A DNA stretch of 64,000 nucleotides, taken from NCBI GenBank assembly GCA_013265495.1, contig MU057654.1, positions 71,789-135,788 of the forward strand. Direction: 5' to 3'. Under the pieces are notes generated by a model. That model saw only the letters and a list, made by a program, of their open reading frames with translations. It was not told the DNA's origin and searched no databases. The stretch is from Vicugna vicugna (Eukaryota). The position numbers and the translations under genes are program-made. This document shows positions 20,491 to 62,800 of this stretch, piece by piece (position 1 is the stretch's first letter; every line of letters begins with the position of its first letter).

Positions 20491-20627
20491 TTTTTACTTT
20501 GTGGGTGGTAATTAGATTTGTTTGTTTGTTTGTTTGTTTGTTTTTAGAGGAGGTACTGGGGATTGAACTCAGGACCTTGTTGTGCATGCTAAACATACGC
20601 TCTACCACTTGAGCTATACCCTCCCCC
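20491..20627 (-). mobile_element. tRNA-derived SINE, Vic-1-like
   Basis: Minus GGGGAGGGTATAGCTCAAGTGGTAGAG…GAGTTCAATCCCCAGTACCTCC (A/B boxes); TSD TAGAGAATATTCTT / TAGAGGATGTTCTT. Confidence 0.9.
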
Positions 20628-20702: not shown

Positions 20703-20848
20703 GGGGGCAGGGAGGGTATAGCTCAGTGGTAGAGCATATACCTAGCATGCACAAGGTCCTGAGTTCAACCCCCAGTACCTCCATTAAATAAACAAACAAA
20801 CAAACAAACAAACCTAATTACCCCCACAAAAAATATTAAAAAGAAAAA
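20703..20848 (+). mobile_element. tRNA-derived SINE, Vic-1-like
   Basis: GGGAGGGTATAGCTCAGTGGTAGAG…GAGTTCAACCCCCAGTACCTCC, (AAAC)n and A tail; TSD AATTAATGAATG / AATTAATGAACG. Confidence 0.9.
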
Positions 20849-26746: not shown

Positions 26747-27230
26747 TGTTAGGAGGCAATTTTTCATGGAATTTCTACATGTCTTATGACAGATTTTGTC
26801 TAGAAATATCTTTTCAAGGTTGTTTTCAGAGCAAACAGCCTTAGAAGATTGTCTGCCATCTGGTCAGAGGACAGATTTGATTCCTGGACAAGGTAGCAAA
26901 GATAATGCCTCTGCTGGGCAAAGATTGGTCAGATTTGCCAGCAGTCTCTTCATAAAATTGGCATATTCCTTAGCTGTGATGCAGATACACTGGATATACA
27001 GTATCAACCTGGTCGCTCTGCATCCTCCCCATGGGACTTAAGGGGCAAAACAATGGGAACATGAAGCTCATGCTCCCTGCTGTATCATAAGTGAAAAATG
27101 ACAGTTGTCTTGTCTCCTTGTCTTCTTACCTAATATATGAAAGTGTGCTTGGCCAGTGTAGCAGCTACAGTAGCTTCTGCTGTACAGGAATTGCTTGACC
27201 ACTTGAAACTCACTACATTGTCACACATGG
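26747..27230. mobile_element. Old solo LTR-like element
   Basis: TGTTAGGAGGC start and ~480 bp of LTR-like sequence; family not assigned. Confidence 0.5.
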
Positions 27231-31100: not shown

Positions 31101-31943
31101 GTGTTTTAAAAATGAATGAATATGAACTGTAAATGACTAGAATCAAATTAAAATGAAAAGGTTAGAATATTAATATTAGAATACAGTGAACTTGGAGAGG
31201 ACATTGGTTCTTAGAATATTTGATTTAGATATTTTTGTGCTGTTTTGGGATCCTTGATTACGTATTTAAATAAATTTCTTAATATAGGTCCTGTTGAAAA
31301 TATTTGGGGGTATATTTATCATGTTAGTCTTGTTTTCCTTGGCTTGATGCTGATAATTTTTTTATTTACTGCAGTAAAGCTGTTTTCTTTATTTAATCTT
31401 TTTCCATAAGACACAACATTAGAGCATGATTGTTCACTTAGTCCCTCCTCCATTCATCTACTCTCTATGCTCACTTAATCCCTTCTCTGATTCTCCCACC
31501 AGGTTAACAATCAGATGTGTTAATTTCCCCTTCTTGTCTTCAATGTCAAGCTCCATTTTTCCTTTCTCCTTCTCAGTTTTCATCTGTATCAATCATCCCT
31601 GCACTCCCAGTCTTCATTCCACAGCACAATCATGGTGTATTTTTAAGTTAATGTTCTAATACTTCTATTTTATTTCTGAGTTTGCAAATGGACAACAGCC
31701 AAAAACATACCACGATTGTCCCAATGTATTCAATATGTTAAATTGTCTTCTCATATGACACACTAATGCATGAGAACAGTATACTAAAGTAACATTGGGA
31801 AAACACTTATATGATATTAAATATATGGTATTAAATATATTCCAATGGAAATTAAACTATATTTCAATGAAAATTATACAACTTAGTGAAATGCTACTTT
31901 TGTTTTTTCAAACTTGCCTACAGTTCTTTTTCTGAATACTTGC

Positions 31944-33555
31944 ATGCTCTGAAAACAGCCTTCGGTTTCACAAAATTTTGTTTTGTACGCATAAGGCAAT
32001 CAGGTGGCACCACCTTGGGAACTTATGTGCAGGTGATTTTGAGACAGTTTTTCTTAGTTCCCTTAAGCAGCAATATCCTTTTTCAAATTATTTTTTAAGA
32101 TTTATCTAATATTCCAGAATAATGATAGATAATAGTCCTGATAAGGGAGCTCATTGTCCTGAATCCTGACTCTAATGATGATAATATTATTTCAGCACAA
32201 AACAAATATTATCCAACTCATCATATTAGCAATGGAATTTGAAGCATCTACTGAGATTATCCCCAAATTTTCTTTTTTCTTTTAATGCCACAAAGTGAAT
32301 CATGTTTATATTTTACTGAAAACTGAACCATCACTGTATTCTTAGGTGAATCCCAGTTTACCCTTTAATGTTCATCTTTTAATGAGAAATCCAATTTGAC
32401 TGCTAATATTTTATGTTGGACTTTTTGTGTCCTCATTTATAAATATGACTGCTCAGGATTCTTCTTAGTATGTTTTCCTCAATAGATTTTATCATTATAT
32501 TTTTAAAATACAATTTTGATTTTTTCTTTCATAATTAAGAACATTTAATTAGCAGTTAGAAATACTTAATTCCTAAACTGTCTGACAGAAAATATTCCTG
32601 GAAGCCTGGACATTTGTGATGATAGCTCATTAATTACTTCAATTTCTTCCATTCTTCTTAGTTTTTAAGGGTTTGGGGGGAGTATTAATTTTTACAGTTT
32701 ATTTTATCCACAAATTCATGCATTTTTATTGACATTTTTAGTGTATTACTATAGCTTTTCAGGGAAATATCCCATTAATTTTTAAGTATTATTTATTATT
32801 CTCTTTTCTTCTTAAGGAGATTACTTAGAGTTGTAATTTAATGATTTTTTTTCTGCCAATCATGCTCATGTTTATATATCAATTTCACAGTTTGGGTTTT
32901 TTTTTCCCTAGAACTTAAGCATCATCAAGAAAACAATTTTAAACTTGGTAAATGTTTAAGGATGTATTGCATTTTTATAAATAATTCAATTTTTGTTTGT
33001 GTTATCTCTTTGGAGACAGGATTTTGCCATTTCTACTTTTGCCAATCCAATGAAGTTTTTAAAAGTCTACTTTTTATAACACTTTATTGAGGTATACAAA
33101 CAGCTATACATAATTAGTGTACATACTTTATGAATTTGTAGATAAGTATACACCTGTGAAAACCTTCACCACAATCAAGGCTACAAACATATTCATCACC
33201 TCCAAAAGTTCCCTCCCTTTCTCTTTATTTATTGTTTTTTAAACTTTTTTTTGTGGTAAAAGCACTTAACATAAGATCTATATTCTTAGCAATTATTAAG
33301 TATATAATATAGTATTGTTAACTATAGGCACTTTGGTAAGGCCAGAGGCATTGGATGGTCAGCCAAGTCCCTTGTTTTCCAGAAGCACTTCCCCAAGTCA
33401 GGGAGTTCCTCTTCAAGCCCAGGTAGCCCAAGACCCAGACAACAGTGGAATCTGGATCAGAGGACAAAAGGCCCAGATGTAGCCAGTATCAATCCTCTGG
33501 CATTATGGACTTGGGTTATGGAGGCCAGAATTTTTCAAAGGACTGAAGCTGACAT
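31944..33555 (-). pseudogene. Decayed H2A gene split by L1 sequence, with stem-loop
   Basis: ATG at 33555; QVH, VLGYL and ENK motifs in 33555-33340; C-tail ILLLKGTKKNCLKITCT* at 32076-32023; minus AAGGCTGTTTTCAGAGC at 31962-31946. Confidence 0.65.
32100..33335 (-). mobile_element. L1 fragments inside the H2A pseudogene
   Basis: Degraded antisense ORF2-like sequence, then an L1MA/MB-type 3'UTR at 33070-33335. Confidence 0.7.
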
Positions 33556-33838
33556 CTCTACAGTGTTGGTGCTATAGGAGTATCTTTTCAAAGTACTTGT
33601 GGTGGAGTCCATAGGAAGCACGTAGGTATCTTGCCTCCTAATTGGCCCACGCCAAGTAAGGGAAATATCTAGCCACATCTAATATGGTGTGATTTATTGA
33701 CAGGCTTTCCTGCATTGCGTTTTATCCAACTAAATTATTGAGTTTACCCAAGACCTCATTTGAATGCAGGGCCTTTATATGGGATGCACCGTGTCACTAA
33801 CATTTTTTCCCCCAAGGTACTGGAAAGATGTGTCTGTC
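33556..33838. promoter_or_regulatory. Remnant H2A/H2B bidirectional promoter
   Basis: 283 bp between divergent ATGs; ATTGG at ~33641; octamer-like ATTTGAAT at 33758-33765; TATA-like TTTATAT at 33774-33780. Confidence 0.7.
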
Positions 33839-34224
33839 ATGCCTGAGATCTCTTCTAACTTTTCTATGTTTAGCAGGAAGTGTTCCAAGAAAGCTGCTTC
33901 TAAAATCCAGTAGGTTAAAAAAAAAAAAGAATGAGACACTGCTACTGAGAGTGTTATTCCACCTTTGTCTATAAGGTTCTGAAACAGGTTTGCTCTGACA
34001 TGGGCATTTTATCAAAGGCCATGAGCATCATGAGTTCTTTCCTTGATTGCATGCTCAAGTGCAACTCAGATGAGGCCTCCTACCTGGCCTGTTGCAAAAG
34101 GTGCTCAAACATCACCTCCAGGGAGGTCTAAACAGCCTTGTGCCAGCTGCTGCCCATAAAGGCAGCTGATCACACTGGGTCTGAGGACACCAAGACCATC
34201 ACCAAGTACACAGTCACAAATTAA
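33839..34224 (+). pseudogene. Histone H2B pseudogene, H2B.1/TSH2B-like
   Basis: MPEISSNFSMFSRKCSKKAASKIQ* then YKVLKQVCSDMGILSKAMSIMSSFL…EASYLA…ITSREV*TALCQLLP…SEDTKTITKYT; two in-frame stops plus a disrupted linker. Confidence 0.97.
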
Positions 34225-34254
34225 TTGCCCTTAGGAGGATTTGAGTAGCAAACA

Positions 34255-34278
34255 CCAAAGGCTTTTTTCAGGCCACAT
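34255..34278 (+). terminator. Histone mRNA 3' stem-loop remnant
   Basis: CCAAA GGCTTT TTTC AG-GCC ACAT vs consensus CCAAA GGYYYT TTYC AGRGCC ACC, ~30 nt after the stop. Confidence 0.85.
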
Positions 34279-34966
34279 ACTTTTTTTTATAATAATAACT
34301 GTAGCCCAGTCAAGTCTGATCTGTTTTATTTTTTTAGACTTGTTGCATTCTGCTCATATGAAGATGTCATTCTTATAATGAGTTAAATATTATCTGATCT
34401 CAAGTTGAATGTATCTGTAGTAAAAGTTGTTCAGAACAAAATAGTAAATTATGTCCAATAATATTCTATTTTACTGCTTTACTAAAAGGGCAGTTCTGGT
34501 AGTTATTTTTCTACCCTTAAAGGGTTCTGTGAGGTCAAAGCTATTTTCATAATGATGTTATTGACTTTTCACCCCCATTCTTCCGTGGGTATACAGTGGA
34601 ATTTCCAGAGATACATCATATGTGAGATATCAAAGCATAAACATAAAAAACAGACATCTCAAGTTAATGATTTTACTGCTTTTCTACGTATGGGATGATG
34701 CAAGAATCTGGGCTCATTAAAATGATTCCTTAGATATGCATCTTAACTATCTAGGGCTAGTATCCAGAGCACGGAATGTTTCATTTTTCTCTATCCTGAA
34801 TTCCCCTCAGGGCAAACCCTTTGGGGTCAGCTGCAGTGGCTAATGACTTGGTGGGGGGCAACAATTGTTTACTGGAATGGCAGGCAATATTATTTACTGA
34901 AATGGCAAACAACATTTTTTGTCTGAACATTTTTCATATGAGCTTGGATTTTATGTTATCATGTAA

Positions 34967-59049: not shown

Positions 59050-59840
59050 GAGGACGCCTCACTGTGTGAGGCCACGTGCTTTTACATCCCGCGCTTTTTG
59101 CCCTTTGCCCTTGGCCACCGTCGCGTCCCCTCCAAAGGGAGGCGGGTGACGCCACGCTGTGGGGGAAGGGGAAGGGTGGCCCGCGAGTCTGAAGCGTTCC
59201 TATTGGTGGAGAGAAGGAGCGAAAACGAGGCTTGAGCCCAACCGAGGAAAAGAGGGGTGAGGGGGCGGGGCTAAGCGGGAGGCGGGGCTATAGAAGCTTA
59301 ACGGGAGCGAGGCGCAAGTGCAGTTGTCGGCGCGTCGCTGCGATGGCCGCGGCGCCGAGCCCAGTCACACCGCTGGCGGCAGAGTCTTCCCCTCAGGAAG
59401 CTACCGTCTCTGCCGCCTCCTACACCGCCTGCGCAGCGGCGGCGGCGGCGGCGGCAGCGGTTGTGCCTGCCTCCTCCGCCACCACCCCTGCCTGCCCGCC
59501 TGCCGGTGGCTGTGGTGACGGCGGCGGCGGCGGCTCCACTATGGCGGCGGCGGGGCGGGGGGGCAGTAGTTTTAAAGTAGACACCCGCCCTTGCCTCAGA
59601 GAAGGTGAGTTCCCGTCCCGGGGTGTGGGGGCGGCCCCATCTCCTTTGCTGCCTCTCTTCTGCCCGTCCGAGATCGGACTGGGCGCGGTTCGCCTCCGCC
59701 CCACCCCCCACCTGCTGTGGCGCAGTAATGGCCAAGCTTGCCCCGCCCCGCCCCGCCCCACCGTTGTAGCCAGTGTGTCAGCCGGACTGAAGCAGAGAGG
59801 GGCTTTCCTACCTCCACCTCCCCCGAAATGGATCGGAGGG
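59050..59840. promoter_or_regulatory. CpG island promoter
   Basis: Abrupt CpG enrichment; E-box CACGTG 59073-59078, TGACGCCA ~59147, ATTGG ~59202, GC boxes 59261-59287, TATAGAA ~59289. Confidence 0.93.
59343..59604 (+). CDS. ZMAT1: First coding exon of zinc finger matrin-type 1
   Basis: MAAAPSPVTPLAAESSPQEA…GGSTMAAAGRGGSSFKVDTRPCLRE matches the ZMAT1 N-terminus as I recall it; phase-1 donor AAG|GTGAGT at 59604/59605; second in-frame ATG at 59541. Confidence 0.82.
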
Positions 59841-62800
59841 GCACCCCAGGGAAAGGAACTTCAGGTATTCACAAGGCAGAAGTTCGAAGGGAAAAAACAA
59901 TACTACATAATTTCTTTCCCAGCCAGGGCGCTTTAGTATTCTCTAGGAAGCTGAGATGTGATTTGGTGAAAGAGAGGAGGCCAGGTAGTGAAGTGCAGTA
60001 GAACTAGAAGGTCAGGGAAAGGGAAGGGGGACTGACAGAAAAAGGAGACAGAGATGAGAGAGGAAAGGCCAAAGAAATAAGTGGGAGGAAACCTCCCTGT
60101 GGTGAAATTCAGCATCTTGTAGTGTAGAAACTTGCCGTAGGGTATTTAAGGAGAGACCAGATTAGAAATTTGAGGAGGTTAGAGTGTATCCTTGAGCTTT
60201 AAGGTAGGATCGGTTGGATTTTAGGATTTTAGGGTCTGGTGGAGGGGGTTGTATTGAGCAAGAGACTGGCAGAAGCACAGACTTCAGGAACCACTTTGGA
60301 GAATTTTCTTTGGCTATTTGAAGGTGTGACCTTGTAAAGCAAGGTTTACAGGCCCATCTTTAAGGTGGTTTGGGTTTTAAAACATGTTGTTTTACTTACC
60401 AACACTTATTACTCCTAACATAAAAAGATATTTCTTGATTATTTCAGTAGTAGTGGTATTTAGTTCACACAAAGTATTATATTCTTGTAAACAGCCTACT
60501 AATAGCAAACTGTAAAAATTGCCATTGAAATGTGTTTTAAAGCAGTTTTGGAAATGCTTCTTAGATGGTCGAGACCGAGTCCACCACAGAAGATCTCAGT
60601 AAAGCATTTTGCCATTGTAAATTTCGTAGTTAATTTCCAGTATTTTCTGTGTTACCTTGTGCTGCTAATTTGCCTCCAAAGTGAAAGGTCGTGGACACCA
60701 AAATAGAGTAGAATAATCTAAGTTACTTTTTCTTAGGAGGACACCCCATTAAAATTATCCCATAAAAATAATTTTCTCTTCACATTCTTAAATGATCCCA
60801 TAACCTTTGACACCTCTCACTTTGGAGGAATGGCAAAGCAGTGAAAAAAAAATCCCTTACAGTATTTGTCATAGGCACATTACATAAATGGCACTAATTA
60901 AATATGGAAGTTAGAAATACACTGTAATATGATAATGTTTTTTTATTTATTAACTCTCATACTGAAGGCAACCTTTGAAAGACTGTTTTGTGTCTTCAGT
61001 CAGCCTGGAGTTGTACAATTTTTCTGGGATGAAAATATGAAGTCTTCTGAATTTTTTGTTTTTATACCAGAATTTCTGTGTATAACCAGCATGAAGGAGA
61101 AAATAGTTTTATAAGTGGTCAAGATCACAATTCATTCTGGCTCGCATGGCCTTTTCACAGTAAGGTTTAGGACCAACACCTCATAGAAAAATGGCTTTTT
61201 GCCTGGCTCTGTGACTGGCTTGGTTGCAGTATCTTTGAATGTATGCAGTTATTAATGGCTTTAAGAGATATAAATTAAGAAAGCAGCAGCAATACTGTGT
61301 CTATAATGTTGTTAGCTGGTAAAAAATGAGGAGAACGCTAGAATAGGGGTCTGGTGCAGTGAACCTAGGTTAGATTTTTCTGACTGTTAACAGATCCCAA
61401 GCTTCCTGGATTTGGGTTTTGACATTTCTGAAATAGAGGTATTGAACTAACCAGACTCCGAGGTTTATTTCAGATCTGAAAGTATAAACCATGATTTTGC
61501 AGTTCTGCATTGCTATTCCTTCGATGGCATTTCCATGGCTGTGCACTAGAACAGTGATTCATAGGCCATAGAAACCTTGATCAAGAGTTATGACCTGACA
61601 TTCAGTGAGTAATGAAGTCTTTGTTGTTAGTACTGAGACAATTTGCTAGGATATGAGAAACCAAATACAATTGCTACCTAAAAATTACCTCTTGCCATTT
61701 CATTTTCGGTAAGTATCCTTCGTTAACTGTTCAGTCCAAACCAAAACTCTTACCTTTTCACTTAACAAATGGTATAGTACACTGTCCAAAACACTATTGG
61801 GTCTCAAAATATTTTTGTTTAGATATTTATAAAGGCCATAATAAAAGATTACCAGTTATGATAGTGGATAAAGGAGAAGAGAGAAAACCGTTTCTATGTG
61901 GTATGCCAATATCTTATGCTTGTTTGTTTTCCAAGTCCTAGTTAGGAGATGGCTCTAAAAGGTGGCAAAGAATTGTTAAGATTCCGATATTGCAAGTCCA
62001 GTCCAGATAGGACCCTTAAAAGTGATTTGATAAAGCATTTGCTGATCCATTTTCAACTATAATCAATACGCCTGAGGATTTCATCTGTCTTGGGGTTGGT
62101 AATGAGCAATGTCAGTGAAGATTACAAATTGCCAAGCAGGGAAGATTAGCTTTCAAAAGTTAGAAATGGGAAATTGGGCAATCAACTTAAAAACAAATCA
62201 GCAAACAAAAGAAATGCCAAGTGAACACATATGAAAAGACACATACTTACCCCAAATTCATGGTAAGGGGAGTCATGAGATTTTGTAGGACCCTTCATAT
62301 TTCATTCAGTGAAGTTTTTCAAAAATGTTTGATGGCTCAGAAATGAATTTTCACCCACTATTGGTGTTGTGATGTAATCATAGTAAAAATCAACACAAAA
62401 ATAAACAAAATCCCTCTTTTTTTATTTCCCTCTTCCTTTTAAGAAAAAGAAATTATTAAATAGATTATCCTTTAGATTGGAGGACATCCTGGCTAATTTT
62501 ATTTAGTTAATAATCTGCTTACATTGCAATTACCTAACAAGACTTTCCTTTGTCTCAGTAGTATTCAGTAAAGTTTCAAGTACACCATAAGAAAACCTAG
62601 TTAATAGCCTTTCCTTCATGTGTTCAGGAATCATTTATTGAACACGTGTGTGTGTGCACGTGTCCATGTGCCAGGCACTTGGCTCAGTGCCCAGAATATA
62701 CAAATGAGCTAGACCCAGCTATATTATGGAGCTCAATAGTAGTGCTTGATAGTAAAATTATAAAATAAATACAATAATTGTGAAAAATGCAGTCTTAAGT

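Follow-up and report, generated by a model that had tools for sequence, protein, structure and literature searches.

The unit studied here lies within a stretch of 64,000 nt (hereafter the window) on contig C604 (71789-135788) of Vicugna vicugna, the only genome examined (a 2.03-Gb assembly), and is probably a pseudogene of the H2B.W family. By sequence comparison it is a dead, DNA-level copy; the founder would be a divergent H2A-H2B pair, which, with moderate support, was of the H2A.1/H2B.1 kind. According to the literature, H2B.W is a testis-specific H2B variant family that is X-linked in other mammals. A first-pass annotation had described a complete dead H2A/H2B unit; the H2B pseudogene, both histone stem-loops and the H2A tail were recovered in our analysis (Table 1), but the H2A body is absent, from the paralogues as well. 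Most likely, the locus has no present-day role. The window has the composition of mammalian DNA, AT-rich and CpG-poor, and no marker gene for chromosomal placement was found in it.

The H2B pseudogene and its paralogous loci

The H2B.W family is represented in the genome by at least four paralogous loci, two of them intact (contigs C5769 and C7989) and two dead (the window and C8919:238707-241798). Intact H2B genes are present on C5769, with an identical fragment on C7989; one of these genes shares 99% identity with a protein listed at NCBI as 'histone H2B type F-M-like [Vicugna pacos]', and its remaining matches are to H2B type W-T and F-M. The dead C8919 locus, which has an H2B pseudogene of its own, is colinear with window positions 31104-33060 and 33345-34616 at 64% identity (E 1e-177 and 1e-126). 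The colinearly aligned unit covers 3.5 kb (31104-34629), and identity is even along the aligned length, at 58-78%, with 51% in the last block. In a blastn comparison restricted to the flanks, the H2B.W loci were matched by window 31115-31423, 32404-32615 (E 9e-30), 32519-33060 and 34300-34629 (E 2e-10); the comparison set also held 18 canonical, H2B.1, H2B.K-like, H2B.L-like or pseudogene (L073) loci, among which no match was found except two short repeat-like ones. A four-way alignment extends without a break over about 900 bp of upstream sequence, including the CCAAT box, and reaches the start codon, where the window reads MPE and the others MAE. In addition, the 3' untranslated region (3'UTR) is one sequence in the window pseudogene, the C8919 pseudogene and H2B.W, unlike that of H2B.1 or canonical genes. 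Since the upstream region, the 3'UTR and the flanks are all shared with H2B.W and none of them with the genome's own H2A.1/H2B.1 locus, the unit is best read as an H2B.W-family pseudogene, and not as a duplicate of that locus; a relative of the H2A.1/H2B.1 pair or of H2A.R had been proposed first. A retrocopy is ruled out, as had been argued from the outset, because the promoter and more than 3.5 kb including both flanks are common to the paralogous loci.

Two peculiarities of the intact C5769 locus were noted during the comparison. At the colinear position, about 1 kb of the dead units (window 31423-32404) is missing. Moreover, the gene L074 (C5769:31096-31566, minus strand) has ATA where L075 has the conserved ATG, and the database model P0003 splices an upstream exon on.

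The H2B pseudogene matches the genome's own H2B.1 and canonical H2B with E ~1e-25 (tblastn), and a frameshift-aware alignment covers residues 1-124 of H2B. One stop follows codon 24, another falls close to codon 32 and the third stands at REIQ. Identity between the pseudogene and living H2B genes is about 65%. Its coding region has 0 CpG, whereas the living H2B.1 has 24 and a canonical gene 37. At first, second and third codon positions it is identical to H2B.1 at fractions of 0.69, 0.73 and 0.52, with a dN/dS of 0.27; these values fit neutral decay of the pseudogene combined with synonymous change in the living gene, and a long period of constraint is not required. When a fragment of the pseudogene was compared with representative proteins, none exceeded 57% identity and no close intact orthologue was visible, although representatives chosen at 50% identity may hide a close orthologue.

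The fold of the pseudogene is canonical-like (...VCSDMGILSKAMSIM...) and its N-tail is basic, with 36 residues. In tblastn, the N-tail matched only H2B.1 proteins at E <0.05. It has the length of H2B.1 and the S/T-S motif, and the canonical N-tail does not align with it from residue 1. The H2B.1-like character of the N-terminus, recognized in the first pass, therefore appears to hold with moderate support from the N-tail search, the alignment scores and the full-length tree presented below. The motif KAMSIM, which had been taken as a further mark of H2B.1, is shared by a Xenopus H2B and by the H2B.K-like exon of this genome, and is thus not diagnostic.

The ATTGG, octamer-like and TATA-like motifs reported earlier are present upstream of the pseudogene in degenerate form, and the same motifs are better kept in the C8919 paralogue, as CCAAT, ATTTGCAT and TATAAATA. 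Global alignment of the window intergenic region to H2A.1/H2B.1 or canonical promoters did not score above shuffles (z 1.1 for H2A.1/H2B.1), and the scores of local promoter alignments reached motif level only. Downstream of the pseudogene, the stem-loop scored 19.7 bits (E 0.098) with the Rfam Histone3 model (RF00032), under its gathering score of 34 bits.

Table 1. Features of the dead histone unit and its surroundings, in window coordinates.
Feature	Position	Strand	Remarks
Far flank of duplicated unit	31104..31916		Aligns to C8919; 31115-31423 also to H2B.W locus
H2A 3'UTR, histone stem-loop and run like a histone downstream element (HDE)	31917..32022	-	Stem-loop 31945-31960; purine-rich run ~31922-31933
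H2A C-terminal tail remnant	32023..32073	-	17 codons including stop TAA (32025-32023); reads LLLKGTKKNCLKITCT followed by the stop
Spacer, ~1 kb	32074..33060		Not a high-copy repeat; common to C8919, partly to H2B.W loci
Truncated piece of high-copy interspersed repeat	33061..33344		Missing from C8919 paralogue
Stretch formerly read as H2A 5' half	33345..33555		Aligns to upstream region of C8919 and H2B.W genes; no H2A likeness
Decayed H2B promoter region	33556..33838		ATTGG, CCAAC, octamer-like and TATA-like motifs
ATTGG	33641-33645		Motif in promoter region
CCAAC	33726-33730		CCAAT in paralogues
Octamer-like ATTTGAAT	33758-33765		Motif
TATA-like TTTATATGG	33774-33782		Motif
H2B pseudogene coding region	33839..34224	+	3 in-frame stops, 1 frameshift, small indels; H2B.1-like N-tail (length, residues), canonical-like histone fold
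H2B 3'UTR and degenerate histone stem-loop	34225..34298	+	Stem-loop 34255-34298, core 34260-34274; 3'UTR common to C8919 pseudogene and intact H2B.W genes
3' flank	34299..34629	+	Homologous to 3' flank of H2B.W genes and C8919 unit

The H2A remnant and the missing H2A body

The 3' end of an H2A gene, with tail, 3'UTR and stem-loop, is really present on the minus strand. The minus-strand stem-loop agrees with the consensus at 14 of its 16 bases, and matches to the consensus with at most 3 mismatches number 3 in the window against 0.41 expected. Together with its 5' context, it is identical to the genome's own H2A.1 3' end at 23 of 25 positions, a score that 0 of 200 shuffles reached, and the purine-rich, HDE-like run follows directly after it. 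The Rfam model did not list this stem-loop at E up to 10. The earlier observation of a stem-loop after each stop was thus upheld, and both are decayed copies, as their context supports. A second stem-loop-like 16-mer at 26818-26833 on the plus strand (GGTTGTTTTCAGAGCA, 3 mismatches) is almost the same as that on the H2A side, but its surroundings show no similarity to histone coding sequence or flanks.

The tail was compared, ungapped and anchored at the stop, with the final 51 nt of every H2A-type gene extractable from the genome (18 genes), and matches were ranked over 127,900 positions in the window. The two H2A.1 copies match the tail at 31/51 and 28/51 (ranks 1 and 3 of the 127,900 positions) and stand first and second among the 18 genes; the best canonical gene reaches 26/51 and most others 23-24, with 22 for H2A.J and 15 for H2A.X. 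From LL to the stop there are 17 codons, which fits H2A.1 and not the 16 codons of canonical H2A. In a gapped alignment, H2A.1 positions 349-489 (tail, 3'UTR and stem-loop) were placed on 32073-31946 with a score of 22.5, against 13.1 +/- 2.0 for shuffles (maximum 20). These results agree with the original view that the H2A partner had a full C-terminal tail and was not a short H2A. A second minus-strand H2B was considered as the source of the stem-loop and rejected: H2B tails score at noise (22-23/51), and no H2B coding match was found.

The homologous tail site is the top match in C8919 (22/33), where a partial stem-loop is also present, and in C5769 (20/33, inverted). A remnant of the last H2A codons thus lies upstream of H2B in all lineages of the family, and in the two dead copies it stands on the strand opposite H2B with its 3' stem-loop kept. 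Within C5769, the H2A-tail segment that is inverted relative to the two dead units occupies about 32719-32920 (reverse-complement 2330-2531).

The H2A body was found neither in the window nor in any paralogue. The stretch 33340-33555 gave no Pfam match at E up to 10 and nothing in tblastn with canonical H2A, H2A.1, H2A.J, H2A.X, H2A.B-like and H2A.L-like proteins. Its frameshift-aware alignment to H2A scored 44, against 36 +/- 5 for shuffles (maximum 51), and local DNA scores by Smith-Waterman equalled those of shuffles. Meanwhile, a whole-genome search with H2A.1 returned no match on the window contig at E up to 10, and sliding 45-mers showed no colinear signal across 32020-33600. The region diverges between the paralogues at the same rate as the flanks. 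As the four-way alignment shows, 33340-33555 corresponds by homology to sequence 5' of the H2B.W genes, and is not H2A; of the two segments first assigned to H2A, 33340-33555 and 32023-32076, only the second aligns, as the tail at 32073-32023. The divergent ATGs on which the earlier reading also relied are indeed 283 nt apart, against 284 nt for the H2A.1/H2B.1 pair on C2689, but the minus-strand ATG (33555-33553) is not conserved in the paralogues.

The expected position of the H2A body is occupied by the spacer, which a whole-genome search found at only two other places, both of them paralogous loci. The match to the high-copy repeat adjoining it spans 33052-33338, and all 40 scored of 1123 first-look candidates fall within this span. 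Among five other copies of the repeat that were inspected, four continue to the right over 220-390 bp or beyond, so the window repeat is a truncated piece. The continuation is probably antisense L1; a Pfam search of open reading frames (ORFs) adjoining other copies gave no confirmation of L1 ORF2. The L1 had been drawn too long in the first pass, since the repeat is confined to 33061-33344 and the remaining ~1 kb is ancestral spacer common to the paralogues.

Origin of the unit and competing explanations

The histone genes were subjected to phylogenetic analysis in two data sets. In the histone fold domain (HFD) tree (89 columns and 56 rows, including 25 H2B.W proteins), H2B.W forms one clade (100/97*) with the C8919 pseudogene as its sister (99/96*). 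The full-length H2B tree comprised 17 H2B.1 sequences, 8 canonical H2B of the genome itself and the two pseudogenes; H2B.W was excluded because its tail is not alignable. The split between H2B.1 and canonical H2B in this tree (92/99.9) leaves the two pseudogenes with H2B.1. Over 625 upstream columns, the Kimura two-parameter (K2P) distance between the window and C8919 is 0.40, and each lies 0.70-0.73 from H2B.W.

The comparison of the paralogous loci shows that the unit was copied as DNA, decayed, and later gained a repeat insertion. The copy comprised about 3.5 kb with promoter, 3'UTR and flanks, and decayed without detectable function before the short repeat was inserted. As for the founder of the family, it may have been a divergent H2A-H2B pair, in which case the body of the H2A (codons 1 to ~115) would already have been lost when the copies parted. 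A founder of the H2A.1/H2B.1 type is suggested, with moderate support, by the N-tails resembling H2B.1 and by the tail of H2A.1 length; they suggest, without proving, a descent of H2B.W from such a pair. The window and C8919 copies would then be early-branching fossils with a short, basic, H2B.1-like N-tail, and the living H2B.W would have evolved the long acidic tail. The full proposal, namely that eutherian H2B.W is a DNA-level copy of an H2A.1/H2B.1-type bidirectional pair whose H2A was gutted early, with the window and C8919 units as surviving intermediates, is tentative, and we would put it at slightly below even chances. If true, H2B.W would be a daughter or sister of H2B.1. According to one study, H2B.1 and H2B.W both date to the eutherian ancestor, and the branching order of the variant clades is not settled (PMC8857922).

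Several results weigh against this reading of the family or of its founder. In the alignment, neither the derived fold residues of H2B.W nor its long acidic tail is present in the window pseudogene, which scores 257 against H2B.1 and 238 against canonical H2B, compared with 147 and 124 against H2B.W. The HFD tree leaves it without supported placement on a branch of length 0.9, and approximately unbiased (AU) tests reject neither its grouping with C8919 and H2B.W (p 0.32) nor that with H2B.1 (p 0.55). The flanks pair the window with C8919, whereas the coding tree pairs C8919 with H2B.W; the 3' half of C8919 is GC-rich (GC 0.65), and gene conversion or retained constraint there could account for the conflict. 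Nor does the N-tail of C8919 show a preference for H2B.1 in nucleotide identity (0.615 vs 0.625). A phylogeny of H2B had been called for in the first pass, and although it places both pseudogenes on the H2B.1 side, their grouping with canonical H2B is not rejected (p-AU 0.39). At the H2A end, the gapped alignment including the stem-loop scores the canonical gene L019 higher than H2A.1 (26 vs 23), and canonical H2A and H2A.1 tie for the tail site in C5769.

The last three of these points are also what favours the rival that survives best, in which the unit is an H2B.W-family pseudogene whose founder pair was canonical (replication-coupled), the likeness to H2B.1 and H2A.1 having arisen by chance or convergence. 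The octamer ATTTGCAT of canonical H2B promoters, intact in C8919, points the same way. However, the 17-codon tail fits H2A.1 and not canonical H2A, the H2A.1 copies lead the 18 H2A-type genes, and the N-tail has the length and S/T-S motif of H2B.1 while the canonical N-tail fails to align from its first residue. We therefore regard a canonical founder as unlikely.

Less probable still is a copy of the H2A.1/H2B.1 locus itself, dispersed to this site long ago and without relation to H2B.W, in which both genes died and an L1 entered the H2A. Such a duplicate would explain the H2B.1-like N-tail, the H2A.1-like tail with the stem-loop context TGAAACC, and the nearly equal spacing of the ATGs in the window and in the genome's own pair. 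It is largely refuted here, because flanks, 3'UTR and upstream region match the H2B.W loci and not L052/L053, the intergenic region does not align to the promoter of the pair above shuffles, the minus-strand ATG is not conserved, and no H2A body is present. A fast-diverging partner related to H2A.R or the short H2As, with 33340-33555 as its unrecognisable coding region, could explain why this stretch does not align to canonical H2A beside an H2B that still resembles living genes, but is highly improbable, given that the genome's own H2A.L-like and H2A.B-like proteins match nothing upstream of H2B in the window or in the three paralogous loci, that the stretch evolves at flank rate, and that the surviving tail is long and of canonical or H2A.1 type, not a short-H2A end.

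Returning to the H2B.W assignment, the unit can be set beside systems already described. The human X is reported to carry two coding members of H2B.W along with two pseudogenes, and other mammals to have 1-4 paralogues at the same site (PMC9526256); heavy turnover of H2B.W, and stem-loop and poly(A) signals for both H2B.W and H2B.1, are described by Raman et al. 2022 (PMC8857922). The human pseudogenes H2BW3P and H2BW4P are likewise dead members of a small H2B.W family, compared here by kind (PMC9526256). Like H2B.W pseudogenes, the window unit stands beside two intact paralogues and shares with them the upstream region, the start codon, the 3'UTR with its stem-loop and the 3' flank; it differs in that its N-tail is still short and basic and its fold canonical-like. 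The intact H2B.W genes (H2B type W-T / F-M) occupy a paralogous locus and have the same 3'UTR and stem-loop, but the window lacks their fold signature (…VH.GLSLS.EAVSVMDS…) and long acidic N-tail, and its reading frame is broken.

With H2A.1/H2B.1 (TH2A/TH2B) the unit has in common the divergent arrangement, a shared promoter region, a stem-loop at each end, an H2B N-tail of H2B.1 length and residues, and an H2A tail of H2A.1 length. It differs in standing at another locus, in having no flank or UTR homology, and in the missing H2A body. The genome's own H2A.1/H2B.1 genes form two intact pairs about 5 kb apart, at C2689:12188454-12189549 and 12194056-12195116 (L005, L009, L010, L052 and L053), with 89% protein identity between the H2A.1 copies and 93% between the H2B.1 copies. 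This corresponds to the local duplication that Raman et al. describe for several mammals (PMC8857922).

Taken alone, the window unit adds a dead gene to a family whose members are known to be duplicated and lost often, and its value is that of a fossil. The H2A tail and stem-loop remnant beside three H2B.W lineages, together with the H2B.1-like N-tails of the dead copies, makes the origin hypothesis testable across mammalian X chromosomes. As far as the literature was covered, it does not describe any H2A remnant next to H2B.W loci; the pseudogenes themselves may already appear in supplementary figures S8 (synteny) and S15 (stem-loops) of Raman et al. 2022.

Other features of the window

Three further features lie away from the histone unit. 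Two matches to the tRNA model, at 20548-20623 (minus strand, 34.3 bits) and 20712-20783 (plus strand, 42.4 bits), exceed the Rfam gathering score; they lie in opposite orientation about 90 bp apart and may be tRNA-derived short interspersed nuclear elements (SINEs) rather than genes. An ORF at 994-1545 on the minus strand encodes a domain like the RNA-binding domain of L1 ORF1 (Pfam Transposase_22, E 3e-12). Finally, a CpG island lies at 59100-59900 (observed/expected 0.47 for the bin covering 56-60 kb); it has GC boxes and, near 59606, a GTGAGT donor, and is probably the first exon of a gene.

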